DNA from: Kiritimatiellia bacterium
Lineage (GTDB): Bacteria; Verrucomicrobiota; Kiritimatiellia; UBA8416; YA12-FULL-48-11
DNA length: 64,000 nucleotides
Reading direction: 5' to 3'
NCBI GenBank assembly: GCA_028716365.1
Contig: JAQUPZ010000001.1
Span: forward strand, 473,205-537,204
Positions 13,536-34,076 of this stretch are shown piece after piece. A program made the translations under genes and the position numbers. The notes under the pieces were generated by a model. That model did no database searches. It saw nothing but the letters and a program-made list of their open reading frames with translations, and was not told where the DNA came from. The number at the start of each line of letters is the position of its first letter. The stretch's first letter is position 1.

Positions 13536-14612
13536 ATGGCTAGAGTTTATAATTTCTGCGCAGGGCCAGCGGTTCTTCCTGAAGAAGCTCTTTTGGAAGC
13601 ACAAATGGAATTGCTGGATTTTAACGGGTCCGGTATGTCTGTTCTGGAATGTAGTCATCGCGGTAAAGAATATGCCGCTGTTCACGATGAATGTGTGGCC
13701 AATCTCAAGAAACTATTGAAAATTTCCGATGATTATGCCGTTTTATTTCTGCAGGGTGGTGCAAGCACCCAGTTTGCGATGGTGCCTATAAATCTTCTGG
13801 TAAACGGTCAGACTGCGGACTATCTCAATTCCGGTGCATGGGCATCCAAAGCCATCAAGGAAGCCAAATTGATCGGCAAGGTCAATGTTGCGGCAGACTG
13901 CGGCAAGGAAATTCCGACCAGGGTACCTTCTGAAAAAGAAATGAAGTTTACCCCAGGCGCTGCGTATGTGCACATTACATCGAACGAGACGATTTCCGGG
14001 GCACAGTACAAGTCATTTCCGAAGACTGAAGCTCCGCTGGTTGCTGATATGTCGTCTGATTTTCTTTCAAGGCCTTTTGACATGAACCAGTTCGGTCTTG
14101 TTTATGCCGGTGCGCAGAAGAATCTCGGTCCTGCCGGAGTGGCAGTGGTGATCATACGCAAGGACCTTGCGGGACGCGTTCCTGCGAACACGCCCACAAT
14201 GCTTAAGTACACAACGCACATAGAGAACAATTCCCTGTATAATACGCCGCCATGTTTTGCAATTTACATGATTAATCTGGTTACTCGCTGGATTCAAAAG
14301 ATGGGACTTGAAAATCTATACAAACAGAACCGCGCCAAGGCACAGAAGATCTACGATGTGCTGGACAGCAGCAAATTCTACAAAGCCACGGCTGTCAAAG
14401 AATGCCGGTCGGACATGAACGTTACGTTCCGTCTGCCCAGCGAGCAACTGGAAGAAATGTTCGTAAAGGAAGCCAGCCAGCAGAAGCTGAAGGGGCTCAA
14501 AGGTCACCGTTCTGTTGGCGGCATCCGTGCCTCCATTTACAATGCTTTTCCTCTCAAGGGAATAGATACTCTTGTTTCATTCATGAAGGAATTTGAGAAG
14601 AAGAACAGCTGA
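13536..14612 (+). CDS. serC: Phosphoserine aminotransferase
   Basis: YNFCAGPA, SHRGK, LQGGAS, DMSSD, GAQKN, YNTPP, GHRSVGGIRASIYNA. Confidence 0.97.
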   Translation: MARVYNFCAGPAVLPEEALLEAQMELLDFNGSGMSVLECSHRGKEYAAVHDECVANLKKLLKISDDYAVLFLQGGASTQFAMVPINLLVNGQTADYLNSGAWASKAIKEAKLIGKVNVAADCGKEIPTRVPSEKEMKFTPGAAYVHITSNETISGAQYKSFPKTEAPLVADMSSDFLSRPFDMNQFGLVYAGAQKNLGPAGVAVVIIRKDLAGRVPANTPTMLKYTTHIENNSLYNTPPCFAIYMINLVTRWIQKMGLENLYKQNRAKAQKIYDVLDSSKFYKATAVKECRSDMNVTFRLPSEQLEEMFVKEASQQKLKGLKGHRSVGGIRASIYNAFPLKGIDTLVSFMKEFEKKNS

Positions 14613-14620
14613 AGAAAAAA

Positions 14621-15191
14621 GAAACGGAGAGACGGAGCACCGGTGAAACGGTGACTATTGTAACGGAGTGGAGACGGGAGCCTTTGGGCGCGAGACTATG
14701 CGACAAGGTGACAGGGAGACTGTGTGGGGCGAAGTGACATGGCGAAATTGTGACTTGGAAACTGAGGTGGGAGAATAATTGGCAGAGAAGATAACCAATC
14801 ACAAGGATTTGCGTGTCTATCAGCAGGCTGTTGACGGAGCCATGGCCATTTTCCAATTGACCAAGAAGTTTCCGGTCGAGGAACGGTTTTCCATGGTTGA
14901 CCAGGTTAGACGTTCTTCTCGTTCTGTATGCGCCAATATAGGAGAGGCATGGAGGAAAAGACGGTACAGAGCGGCGTTTATTGCTAAACTTAATGATGCT
15001 GAAGGAGAGGCCTCAGAAACACAAATCTGGCTGGATTTAGCCAGGAGATGTTGTTATGTCTCTTCAAGTGAGGCAACCAGCTTGGAGAAAATCTATGACA
15101 ATATCATTGGTCAATTAGTTACCATGATTCGTCAAGTGGATAAATGGGTTATCGAAGAATCATGATCACAGAGTCTCCTTGTCACCTTGTC
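14621..15191. repeat. Octamer low-complexity repeats and a 20-bp inverted repeat bracketing the four-helix-bundle gene
   Basis: GAAACGGA/GAGACGGA/GCACCGGT/GAAACGGT at 14621-14652; GACAAGGTGACAGGGAGACT (14702-14721) pairs with AGTCTCCTTGTCACCTTGTC (15172-15191) with one mismatch. Confidence 0.75.
14779..15165 (+). CDS. Four-helix-bundle protein (23S rRNA IVS/TIGR02436-like)
   Basis: HKDLRVYQ, FPVEERF, QVRRSSRSVCANIGE, EASETQIWL; TTG start. Confidence 0.9.
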   Translation: MAEKITNHKDLRVYQQAVDGAMAIFQLTKKFPVEERFSMVDQVRRSSRSVCANIGEAWRKRRYRAAFIAKLNDAEGEASETQIWLDLARRCCYVSSSEATSLEKIYDNIIGQLVTMIRQVDKWVIEES

Positions 15192-15208
15192 TCAAATTCT
15201 CAGAAAGA

Positions 15209-15311
15209 GCGCCTGTAGCTCAATTGGACAGAGCCTGCCCTGTCGAATGATGGGGCGTCAGCCTCCGCCATGTCATTCGACATGGCGCCCTGCCGACTGA
15301 CAGGGCGGAGC
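15209..15311 (+). pseudogene. 5' 41 nt of tRNA-Arg(CCG) interrupted by three 20-22 nt hairpin insertions
   Basis: Removing inserts 15235-15256, 15268-15287 and 15288-15307 restores exactly GCGCCTGTAGCTCAATTGGACAGAGCGTCAGCCTCCGGAGC, identical to 15636-15676. Confidence 0.9.
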
Positions 15312-15317
15312 ATTAAA

Positions 15318-15590
15318 ATGAAATATTATTACGTTTACATATTATTGCTCTCCAATAATCAGCTCTATACCGGTTTCACCGCTGACTTGAGCGGTAGAAT
15401 TGCAGATCACAAGGACGGGAGAGTTAAATCAACACAATACCGCAGGCCGCTCGAGTTGATTCATGCGGAAAGTTACTGCCTTGAATCTGATGCCAGGCGC
15501 CGCGAAAAGTTTTTGAAAACAACGGAAGGAAAACACCTGCTTCGTCAGCAAATCAGGGATATCTTGCACTTGAAGGGTGTTATTGAGTAG
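15318..15590 (+). CDS. Stand-alone GIY-YIG nuclease
   Basis: YVYILL...YTG, conserved Arg (GRI) and Glu (RRE); the real start is probably 15318, not 15270. Confidence 0.9.
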   Translation: MKYYYVYILLLSNNQLYTGFTADLSGRIADHKDGRVKSTQYRRPLELIHAESYCLESDARRREKFLKTTEGKHLLRQQIRDILHLKGVIE

Positions 15591-15635
15591 ATTCTTTTCA
15601 CAAAGCAATATACTTTGTTCTCTTGATTTGTCCAT

Positions 15636-15712
15636 GCGCCTGTAGCTCAATTGGACAGAGCGTCAGCCTCCGGAGCTGAAGGTTATGAGTTCGAGCCTCA
15701 TCAGGCGCACCA
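15636..15712 (+). tRNA. tRNA-Arg(CCG)
   Basis: Acceptor GCGCCTG/CAGGCGC+ACCA; anticodon arm TCAGC-CTCCGGA-GCTGA; T arm ATGAG-TTCGAGC-CTCAT. Confidence 0.97.
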
Positions 15713-15720
15713 TTACCAAA

Positions 15721-15757
15721 AATGGGTAGGTTGTAATATGAACCTGCCCATTTTTTT
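15721..15757 (+). terminator. Rho-independent terminator after tRNA-Arg
   Basis: AATGGGTAGGTT/AACCTGCCCATT stem followed by a T-run. Confidence 0.8.
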
Positions 15758-15977
15758 CATGCTTTCCCTAACAATCCTACCAAATCTGGACACCAACCTA
15801 CCCAAAAATGGTAACTTAGAGGTTTATTAGGGTTTTTTGAGGACCGGATGATAGCCCGGATGATAAATGAGGGGGGATTAGGAAAAATAAGCCCCTATAT
15901 CCATTACGATTTGATTCTTGATGAAGCTGAGAATTGGTCTAAAAATCACACATACCATAAGGGCTATTTGGTTTTTT

Positions 15978-16841
15978 CTATGGTACAATGATTTTTCTTA
16001 CATTACTTCCTGCTGATTCGCCATATGAGTTTGTAGTGCTGACTCTGTACCAGTAGATTCCAGCGTCTAAAACAGTGTTGGTACAGCAAGTAATATTGGA
16101 TGTTGTAATGATGATATTACTGTAAGAGCTAGTGAGCTGATCCTTTCGATATACGACAAACGCCTGTTCGTTGTCACTATTGTCCGACCAAGTTAGAACA
16201 ACATCTCGTCCTGTAAATGTTAGATTAAGATCAGTGGGTTTTTTGGGAGGAAGGTTTTGTTTGTCTAGGACAATAAGATATGAGTAGTCAGTATATACGC
16301 CGCCGCCAATGGCGGTAAGCCGTATTCGGGTATCACTGAGTTTGTCGATAGTCCACGCGCGATATCCACTTCCTCCCTTGAATAAGGTTCCGGCTTGGAC
16401 ATTATAAATTTCGAAGAAGCCGGCGCTCGAATCGATCTCAAAAGGAGTTGGCGTGCAAGTGATACTCGGCGCCGCTGAATTCGTTATCCATACTTCGTTA
16501 GAGGAATCATAGGTAACGAAATAATCTGGCGAAAATGTCATCGTAACATTAGTAAGACAGACATACAGGCTGTTGGTACCATCCTGCCAGTCTGCGGTCT
16601 TGGGGTAACCACTCAATCCGTATGCAGTTCCTTTCCAAACCCCAATAATATTTTCCATACTGGGAGTATTTGCGGTACGTTGGATCTTGTCAAATAGCTC
16701 GTTGATCACGTCTGCGGAGATTACATCACTGGGCTTAATCCGATGTTCCGATTTGTAATCATCTGCGAATATATTTGTATCGATTAATATGGGCACCATA
16801 ATAATCTCCAGTAATATCAAGGAGTGTATATACTTGTTCAT
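15978..16841 (-). CDS. Secreted protein with C-terminal fibronectin type III domain
   Basis: PKKPTDL...LTWSDNSDNEQAFVVYR...YWYRVSTTNSYGES. Confidence 0.75.
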   Translation of the reverse strand: MNKYIHSLILLEIIMVPILIDTNIFADDYKSEHRIKPSDVISADVINELFDKIQRTANTPSMENIIGVWKGTAYGLSGYPKTADWQDGTNSLYVCLTNVTMTFSPDYFVTYDSSNEVWITNSAAPSITCTPTPFEIDSSAGFFEIYNVQAGTLFKGGSGYRAWTIDKLSDTRIRLTAIGGGVYTDYSYLIVLDKQNLPPKKPTDLNLTFTGRDVVLTWSDNSDNEQAFVVYRKDQLTSSYSNIIITTSNITCCTNTVLDAGIYWYRVSTTNSYGESAGSNVRKIIVP

Positions 16842-16855
16842 TTTATCCCCCTTTA

Positions 16856-17356
16856 CTATTCAAACACAGACATGTCAGCTGTAGCTTGCTCCGCCTCTTC
16901 ATTTACGATACACTGGATTCGGTAGAATTGAGTTACACTAAAGACCGTGCTGGTAATGCAACTAGAAGTCTGATGCCAAGTACCAGTACCGCCAGTAGCA
17001 TATACGAAACCTACTCGTTGTGCATTGGTTGCAAGAGATGTGATGGTGTTTGCACAAGTAACCTCGTATACTTTTCCGCTGATGCTTTGCCACTCAATAA
17101 TCGTATTTTCTTCCTGAACGGTAATGTTCGTTACGGCAAGAACACTCGTAGGATCGCCGGGATTTGTACCCGTAAGGGTCTCATCCCAATCTGTTAGACC
17201 ATCATTGTCATAATCTGTCACTGTTGCCGTCTCTATGATGTTTGTTTCCTCGGCAAAGAGGATGTAGGGCATTAATAACATCATCGCAAAAACGGTACCT
17301 AATCTACAAAGATATGAACATGTCTCTATGATTTGGAACTGTTTGCTTTCATTCAT
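16856..17356 (-). CDS. Secreted protein with DxDxDG (TSP3-like Ca-binding) motif and PVC-type Ig-like C-terminus
   Basis: DYDNDGLTDWDETLTGTNPGDPTS; IEWQSISGKVYEV...FYRI; start uncertain. Confidence 0.65.
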   Translation of the reverse strand: MNESKQFQIIETCSYLCRLGTVFAMMLLMPYILFAEETNIIETATVTDYDNDGLTDWDETLTGTNPGDPTSVLAVTNITVQEENTIIEWQSISGKVYEVTCANTITSLATNAQRVGFVYATGGTGTWHQTSSCITSTVFSVTQFYRIQCIVNEEAEQATADMSVFE

Positions 17357-33602: not shown

Positions 33603-33645
33603 CCTCCGGAGCTGAAGGTTATGAGTTCGCGCCTCATCAAGCGCA
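33603..33645 (+). repeat. att-like copy of the tRNA-Arg 3' half
   Basis: CCTCCGGAGCTGAAGGTTATGAGTTCGCGCCTCATCAAGCGCA, 41/43 to 15667-15709; similarity continues through the terminator to 33752. Confidence 0.9.
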
Positions 33646-34076
33646 TACTTGCCAAAAATGAGCAGGTTGCAATATAAACCTGCCCATTTTTTTCAGTTTT
33701 CCTAACAATCCTCACAACTTTTGCCAGTAACCCTCCCGGAAATGGTAACTTAGGAGGATGAATTTACTACTTAAACTAAGCTACGTAGTATATAGGTTAT
33801 TTGTCTAGGGTGACATTTCTTGTGCTTCCATGTGATAATTCCCGCCAGATATAAATTTGTAAAAATAGTCCTCCCAGTAGTGGCGAATTCGACCAGTTCG
33901 CCATTTGCTATAGGGGCGAAAGTGGACGCACTTTCGCCCCTTCTTTTTATTAGCCTTCTCCACTCCCAGTAAAACCTGTTCTAGTTGCCCCATTTGAATC
34001 AACTTGAGGACTAAAAGAATCCGGTCTTGTTTATGATAAGGGCGCTTGATAGCTTTCCTCTTATTAACAGGTATAT

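Follow-up and report, generated by a model that had tools for sequence, protein, structure and literature searches.

The locus analyzed here raises the question of why an intact tRNA-Arg(CCG) gene is preceded by a very small GIY-YIG nuclease gene, which is itself preceded by a copy of the 5' part of the same tRNA. It lies at positions 15209-15712 of a stretch of 64,000 nucleotides (nt) from a Kiritimatiellia bacterium (contig JAQUPZ010000001.1), referred to below as the window. The preliminary description of this DNA had suggested a tiny, nuclease-only selfish element targeting tRNA genes. The examination of homologs, of empty sites and of the extent of the duplication supported this suggestion, the nuclease activity itself being predicted from the sequence. 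We favor, with a probability of roughly 0.6, a free-standing, intron-less, homing-type GIY-YIG selfish element that measures about 365 nt without its hairpins and repairs the tRNA gene it enters. The direct support comes from the anatomy of the locus, the empty sites in relatives, the link to tRNA genes, the insertion-site consensus, the covariation in the hairpins, the switching of targets, the tandem arrays and the relics.

The locus consists of the following parts, all on the plus strand:

15209..15234, +: tRNA-Arg remnant, positions 1-26 (acceptor 5' strand and D arm), an exact 26-nt repeat of 15636-15661
15235..15256, +: single hairpin unit of the H+ type, GCCCTGTCGAATGATGGGGC preceded by CT; a 22-nt insert with one 20-nt hairpin (motif search and sequence)
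15257..15266, +: remnant tRNA positions 27-36 (anticodon stem 5' strand and loop, to the second C of the anticodon CCG)
15267..15306, +: 40-nt double hairpin, GCCATGTCATTCGACATGGC followed by GCCCTGCCGACTGACAGGGC, between C36 and G37 of the anticodon loop
15307..15311, +: remnant tRNA positions 37-41 (GGAGC), the end of the tRNA homology (compared with 15672-15676)
15312..15317, +: 6-nt leader ATTAAA from the remnant to the start codon; left end of the putative block of about 365 nt (sequence)
15318..15590, +: GIY-YIG nuclease gene, 90 amino acids (aa), nuclease domain only, UPF0213/Slx1-like branch (Pfam PF01541)
15591..15635, +: 45-nt spacer between the open reading frame (ORF) and the intact tRNA
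15636..15712, +: intact tRNA-Arg(CCG) (ARAGORN and Rfam, tRNA, 70 bits)

The order first proposed (41 nt of tRNA, 6 nt, ORF, 45 nt, full tRNA) is exact after removal of 62 nt of hairpins, but the 41 nt do not form one block. The upstream copy of tRNA positions 1-41 is made up of three pieces, and both inserts lie exactly at C^G steps, the single hairpin at C26^G27 of the tRNA copy. The 26-mer at 15209 was recovered by blastn within the window with an expectation value (E) of 9e-10, and 15255-15267 (tRNA positions 25-37) is an exact 13-nt repeat of 15660-15672. The unit at 15235-15256 was assigned on the basis of hairpin units with the center GTCGNATGAC that recur throughout the family; the double hairpin at 15267-15306 has a degenerate center in its second unit. 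As single-stranded DNA, the hairpin region of the window folded with z=-3.74, better than 200 of 200 shuffles. The hairpin motif was matched three times in the whole window, always at the GIY-YIG locus, against 0.15 matches expected. A short resumption of the tRNA sequence after the double hairpin, as in 15307-15311, was also seen in most homologous loci; judging from its letters, the GGAG of this piece may also serve as a ribosome-binding site.

The duplication does not extend beyond tRNA positions 1-41. The flanks of the two copies (15166-15208 and 15591-15635) are unrelated; hence the 5' copy does not belong to any larger duplication, the outcome that had been named as speaking against the selfish element. 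According to the preferred reading, positions 1-41 of the intact tRNA (15636-15676) would have been brought by the element and the remainder would be the resident 3' part. The GIY-YIG gene is the only ORF of the unit of about 365 nt, and no tyrosine or serine recombinase is encoded in it. A group I intron or another known RNA family was also considered: Rfam searches over 14000-17000 at E<=1 returned only the tRNA, and what follows the ORF is a complete tRNA and not a 3' exon; both possibilities were rejected.

The ancestral state of the site was looked for in 80 loci from metagenome contigs scanned for an uninterrupted tRNA-Arg(CCG) core. None of the 80 encoded a relative of the GIY-YIG protein. 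In three of them (L143, L168 and L128) a SerC ortholog with 73-77% aa identity lies directly upstream, as in the window. L143 and L168 carry serC, a long intergenic stem without any ORF and the intact tRNA-Arg(CCG), with no GIY-YIG gene; in L128 a different gene for an intervening-sequence protein (IVP) lies within the stem, again followed by the intact tRNA and no GIY-YIG gene. The empty alleles anticipated in relatives were thus found in L143 and L168, and in L128 with the IVP gene only. In all three loci the 3' arm of the stem adjoins tRNA position 1, and in the window the same arm adjoins the remnant at 15209-15234. Since the stem of the window meets the partial copy where its relatives have the start of the tRNA, this copy is the 5' part of the ancestral gene. 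As read from the sequence, the insertion is therefore the block 15312-15676 plus the hairpins, exactly the unit of about 365 bp inside a tRNA that the preliminary description had put forward. Sporadic occupancy with empty alleles at the orthologous site, a mark of free-standing homing genes, was found here.

Homologs of the protein were sampled as the best 80 of more than 561 matches, on contigs from one genome per species. A tRNA gene on the same strand was present within 150 nt at 72 of the 80 loci (59 downstream, 13 upstream), many of them with a partial copy across the ORF, so that the position between a partial and a full tRNA predicted for the homologs was recovered; several of the remaining contigs end at the ORF. 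As tRNA genes are sparse in bacterial genomes, very few loci adjacent by chance would be expected. The linked tRNAs represent 12 amino-acid types, with Ser the commonest, and the hosts belong to Patescibacteria, Lentisphaerae, Kiritimatiellae, Verrucomicrobiota, Gammaproteobacteria and Bdellovibrio. The nearest relatives of the window protein (L084, L088 and L085) lie at tRNA-Arg with hairpins at the same anticodon-loop site. No relatives of the protein were detected in a search of viral contigs, and carriage by phages is therefore unsupported.

When the tRNA is downstream, a 5' copy of that tRNA often precedes the ORF, with typical extents of 1-36/37, 1-55 and 1-72. When it is upstream, the ORF starts 0-30 nt past the tRNA 3' end; in several such loci the ORF runs into the double hairpin, with the stop codon within the hairpin unit, and in several a copy of the last ~20 nt of the tRNA (55/56-76) comes next. 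From sequence comparison the family has two mirror forms, one restoring the 5' part of the tRNA and the other the 3' part, and their partial copies end at anticodon-loop or T-loop positions. Carrying of the 5' half, postulated earlier, holds for the window but not for the family: because both mirror forms exist, the 5' duplication is no rule. The possibility that the locus is a decayed old tandem tRNA duplication with an unrelated ORF caught in between is practically negligible; tandem tRNA genes are frequent, but chance would have had to repeat layout, insertion sites and hairpin alike across dozens of unrelated genomes and tRNA types.

Altogether 46 double hairpins, each exactly 40 nt long, were found in the homologous loci with the consensus GCCnnGTCATnCGACnnGGC then GCCnnGTCGnATGACnnGGC. 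They interrupt two kinds of sites. At the center of the T loop the insertion site is GGTTC^GAATCC (28 of 46 by the strict pattern GGTTC|GAnTC, about 31 by eye), and in about 13 of the 46 the site is YC^GR, within the anticodon loop of a Ser-CGA or Arg-NCG tRNA. Both half-sites, at least 5-6 nt, always flank the hairpin, and the ORF is on the side of the short flank. The hairpin splits the presumed target site in the remnant, and the restored tRNA keeps the loop sequence intact. The breakpoint had been placed just past the anticodon loop. The homology does end at position 41, but the recurrent landmark of the family, as the aligned loci indicate, is the 40-nt double hairpin at a C^G step in the T or anticodon loop and not the junction at position 41.

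The pattern used to search for the hairpins included their conserved centers. The stems are 97.5% paired and the double-change cells number 94, compared with 21.5 in shuffles (0/500); this covariation signal collapses once the pairing partners are slid. Hairpin units occur at a density of 2.49 per kb near the ORFs versus 0.06 per kb elsewhere in the same loci (41-fold). Single hairpins, some with TAAA after them, also interrupt the D-arm region of remnants, and single, double, triple and nested units were seen. Units nested in the loop of another hairpin were noted in L029 at about 1920-1990 and in L064 at about 1910-1950. Dispersed palindromes of the kind of repetitive extragenic palindromic (REP) sequences or miniature inverted-repeat transposable elements (MITEs) were considered and rejected: all three units of the window sit at one locus, and away from the ORFs the density drops to the low value given above.

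These observations bear on an explanation in which it is first of all the 20-nt and 40-nt hairpins that move, as miniature palindromic elements, and the GIY-YIG protein serves them as a structure-specific nuclease or 'transposase'. It would cut at C^G and leave CG overhangs that are then joined again, and the ORF and tRNA duplications would arise as by-products when such breaks are repaired. Insertion precisely at C^G whatever the flanks speaks for it, all the more as the insert can be parsed equally well as 38 nt plus a CG duplication; so do the single, double, triple and nested units, the remnants that bear a hairpin without an ORF and the similarity of the protein to Slx1, a nuclease of branched DNA. 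We consider this explanation unlikely, given that the hairpins are nearly never found away from the GIY-YIG genes and tRNA remnants, with none elsewhere in the 64-kb window, and that GIY-YIG transposases are not known. Random orientation of the hairpins, which would be a sign of independent reinsertion, was also looked for, but in most cases the two units follow one another in a constant order with respect to the ORF. Such order is expected of co-inheritance; it weakens the hairpin-first explanation and argues that the hairpin and the ORF travel together.

A sign of mobility came from the comparison of close relatives, as 5 of 11 protein pairs with at least 80% identity lie beside different tRNAs. 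Tandem ORFs were found in L038 (150-660) and L010 (1440-2280). Arrays of two ORFs or two hairpin-bearing remnants in a row were noted in these two loci as well as in L084 (3800-4368) and L033 (1899-1980). The upstream repeat of L084 also takes in the 3' end of the ORF and the spacer, which indicates a former tandem copy; a second, divergent GIY-YIG gene lies on the minus strand of the same contig (3208-3486), about 500 nt upstream of the tRNA-linked one. Relics without an ORF were detected in L051 (3580-3645), L083 (1238-1300) and L066 (1760-1815), each consisting of an intact tRNA, 7-58 nt, GGTTC, the double hairpin and a 3' remnant of the tRNA. Together, the tandem arrays and ORF-less relics resemble the cycle of homing and decay. 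A more complex layout was seen in L041 (1733-1962) and L054 (1750-1981), where a tRNA-Thr remnant (1-57) with a double hairpin is followed by ~55 nt and an intact tRNA-Thr with no ORF between them, and the GIY-YIG ORF lies between the intact tRNA-Thr and a tRNA-Tyr.

The arrays could also be produced without homing, if a small circular or linear DNA made of the ORF and a tRNA fragment integrated by Campbell-type homologous recombination, the nuclease only stimulating the process or having another role. A single crossover in the carried tRNA segment yields both observed layouts and the tandem arrays too. This scheme seems quite improbable to us, as it accounts neither for remnants ending at the C^G steps of loops nor for the conserved hairpin exactly at these ends; moreover, 21-55 nt of homology is short for RecA-dependent integration and no function for replication or circularization is present. 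Very improbable is a host function, in which the GIY-YIG protein would act on tRNA genes or transcripts (processing, quality control or defense) and the tRNA-like hairpin leader would serve as a regulatory or decoy RNA. In favor of such a role, the ORF invariably points the same way as the tRNA, lies a very short distance from it and probably shares its transcript, and the protein is strongly conserved across phyla (60-80% identity); the sporadic occupancy with empty orthologous sites, the tandem arrays, truncated ORFs and relics, the close relatives at different tRNAs and the variable, decaying remnants all speak against it.

The 90-aa protein of the window matched PF01541 with E=4.5e-12 and 46.5 bits against a cut-off of 22.6. 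Residues Y7, Y17, G19, H31 and E63 are invariant among 35 homologs and R27 is conserved in at least 90%; all are present in the window protein, and Y7, Y17, R27, H31 and E63 are those which we take, by analogy with I-TevI, to be catalytic. The predicted structure is a single compact domain with a predicted local distance difference test (pLDDT) score of 92.9. Profile searches of the PDB matched the UPF0213 proteins BH0048 and EF2693 (1zg2 and 1ywl, E~6e-12), and Foldseek ranked 1zg2 and 1ywl first, followed by Slx1 (6seh/7cq2) with a template modeling (TM) score of 0.6. The fold and the catalytic residues are those of an intact GIY-YIG nuclease. Seg-type endonucleases are much longer and have a separate DNA-binding region, whereas the 90-aa protein lacks such a region at its C-terminus. 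No named family in NCBIfam matches the window protein. Its close relatives are counted in hundreds, with 60-83% identity across phyla, and the profile search at E<=1e-10 gave 2,832 clusters at 50% identity.

From the insertion-site consensus and the precedent of the phage T4 nuclease SegB, discussed below, we infer that the nuclease cleaves the empty allele and that repair copies the gene into it; the cut site and the role of the hairpin are likewise predictions. The homing-type element would comprise the gene for the 90-aa Slx1/UPF0213-like nuclease, the 40-nt double hairpin and a copy of the tRNA part that is displaced on insertion. The nuclease would cut tRNA genes that are still unoccupied, at the C^G step of a loop of 7 nt. 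In the T loop this site is GGTTC^GAATCC; in Ser-CGA and Arg-NCG tRNAs it is YC^GR of the anticodon loop. The cut would probably have a stagger of 2 nt; other tRNA genes with GGTTCGAATCC are candidate targets. The occupied copy may then serve as the repair template, with the tRNA segments on either side acting as homology arms. Repair would copy the hairpin, the ORF and the spare tRNA part, so that the tRNA stays functional and the old part stays behind as the remnant. The double hairpin would split the target site of the remnant and probably also bears a binding motif for the nuclease. The upstream promoter of the tRNA itself most likely drives both the ORF and the restored tRNA; a promoter scan found no promoter-like site on the plus strand of the 15591-15635 spacer, a weak result, as the promoters of the host may differ.

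Several points weigh against this reading, in which the nuclease activity is a prediction from sequence. As the presumed target is regenerated in the restored tRNA, it is not obvious that the element would be protected from its own nuclease; in classical homing the site is lost or changed. A 90-aa domain without a separate DNA-binding module leaves specificity for an 11-bp loop sequence unexplained. The precise insertion of 40 nt at differing flanks (T versus anticodon loops) fits site-specific insertion better than copying driven purely by homology. The homologs sampled were the best-scoring matches, so that the link to tRNA genes may weaken in more distant relatives, and no relatives on viral contigs were observed that could account for the spread between phyla. 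Finally, since the centers were part of the search pattern, their conservation is partly circular and the stem pairing alone is independent evidence.

The regenerated site, the reading of 11 bp and the precise landing are misfits that keep alive the alternative in which hairpins are mobilized. Its fullest form, which we regard as unlikely, makes the Slx1-like protein a structure-specific nuclease for stem-loops with a central CG (T and anticodon arms, extruded or single-stranded, and its own hairpins) that moves the hairpins and itself by cut-and-rejoin with 2-nt CG overhangs. If true, DNA transposition or homing would have a new mode that relies on a nuclease alone, and no smaller autonomous mobile element would be known in bacteria.

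Among the known systems, the closest case to the homing-type element is SegB of phage T4, a free-standing GIY-YIG homing nuclease encoded in the T4 tRNA gene cluster (PMC2330249). SegB recognizes GGTTCRANTCC, a conserved sequence present in many tRNA genes, and its cuts have 3' overhangs of 2 nt, but it requires 27 bp for recognition and the cut falls near the 3' end of the tRNA instead of in the loop (PMC2330249). The two systems share the GIY-YIG domain, the free-standing position among tRNA genes and the T-loop motif, and SegB spreads by break repair with flanking tRNA sequence (PMC2330249). A GIY-YIG homing nuclease that recognizes the T loop is thus already known, which modifies the preliminary description. 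SegB lives in phage genomes, whereas the window protein is a chromosomally encoded one of 90 aa, and neither a partial tRNA duplication nor a hairpin element is described for SegB.

Other systems share further traits with the window element. Integrating islands and prophages also use anticodon-loop and T-loop targets (attachment sites of tyrosine integrases), restore the gene by a carried duplicate and leave a direct repeat, but they depend on an integrase, carry the 3' part as their duplicate and extend over kilobases. The window unit is without a recombinase, spans ~365 nt and duplicates the 5' part (1-41); 3' copies occur in several of the 13 relatives with an upstream tRNA. Proteins of the UPF0213/YhbQ type and Slx1 have a stand-alone GIY-YIG domain of about 90-100 aa, and Slx1 cuts branched and stem-loop DNA; Slx1 acts in repair as a partner of Slx4, not as a mobile element. 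No tRNA or hairpin association of UPF0213 proteins turned up in the searches of this analysis.

Paquin, Laforest and Lang (1994) reportedly described free-standing GIY-YIG ORFs in fungal mitochondria (e.g., Allomyces atp6), each with a copy of the host gene's end. These are likewise intron-less nuclease genes inside an essential gene that bring a replacement segment and leave the original as a pseudogene fragment; they are said to differ in that the targets are organellar and protein-coding, the ORF is fused in frame or much longer and the 3' end is duplicated, whereas here it is either end.

The double-hairpin elements of Allomyces mitochondrial DNA, the GC clusters of yeast mitochondria and other repetitive hairpin-forming elements are short G+C-rich single or double hairpins, apparently mobile, tandem and inserted into structural RNA genes (PMC2800124, citing Paquin et al. 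2000). Such elements are dispersed in many copies per genome, and a dedicated nuclease is not known for them. The hairpins of the window family, unlike these, are confined to tRNA remnants beside one nuclease gene and have a defined C^G target.

The element fails the tests that define Seg-type proteins, integrase islands, group I introns and dispersed REP/MITE repeats. T-loop targeting (SegB), gene restoration by a carried duplicate and mobile double hairpins are each known separately and are combined here. No description of a tRNA-linked GIY-YIG family was found in the searchable full-text literature, although papers available only by subscription may hold one; the design looks like an undescribed kind of very small selfish DNA. 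If confirmed, it would be among the smallest autonomous mobile elements of bacteria, consisting of a 40-nt hairpin, a nuclease of 90 aa and a tRNA segment borrowed from its host. By using the T loop and some anticodon loops, which are the most conserved short sequences of cellular genomes, it would be able to live in very distant phyla. Confirmation would explain the many genes annotated as 'GIY-YIG nuclease family protein' beside tRNAs, especially in Patescibacteria, together with pseudo-tRNA fragments and metagenome contigs that end just past the ORF. It would also provide a bacterial counterpart to the fungal mitochondrial hairpin elements and gene-end-duplicating ORFs. A nuclease this small, specific for a loop or a structure, could also be of practical use.

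Many metagenome contigs break off shortly behind the ORF, as a short repeat would lead one to expect. Five contigs of the sample (L002, L003, L084, L087 and L088) end 67-95 nt past the ORF, inside the restored tRNA. These ends are probably assembly breaks at the short tRNA repeat; such elements may therefore be under-assembled in metagenomes.

The surroundings of the locus showed additional features. The spacer between serC and the tRNA contains a long stem (window 14692-15201, arms 14692-14726 and 15167-15201, RNA fold z=-5.05), and a gene for a 23S-rRNA-intervening-sequence protein (PF05635/TIGR02436) lies at 14779-15165 in the loop of this stem. It looks like an insertion of the intervening-sequence type outside rRNA, just upstream of the tRNA. 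A second GIY-YIG or IVP gene was not found in the window by tblastn or blastn. A general link between IVP and GIY-YIG genes was rejected, as only one weak IVP match was seen among 85 GIY-YIG loci.

A direct repeat, 85-95% identical, is formed by 15667-15825 and 33603-33760; it includes tRNA-Arg positions 32-76 and ~110 nt downstream with a terminator-like hairpin. The ~18 kb between the repeats has a GC content of 36-42% versus 45-51% in the flanks and encodes LRR, Sel1, MORN, signal-peptidase and response-regulator proteins. This region looks like a separate genomic island at the same tRNA; no integrase or recombinase was found by Pfam among 18 ORFs of the island. The T stem of the window tRNA is ATGAG/CTCAT, versus GCCAG/CTGGC and similar stems in L143, L168 and L128. 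Positions 1-49 of the tRNA are identical between the window and L143, and the T stem of the window is shared by the copy at 33.6 kb.

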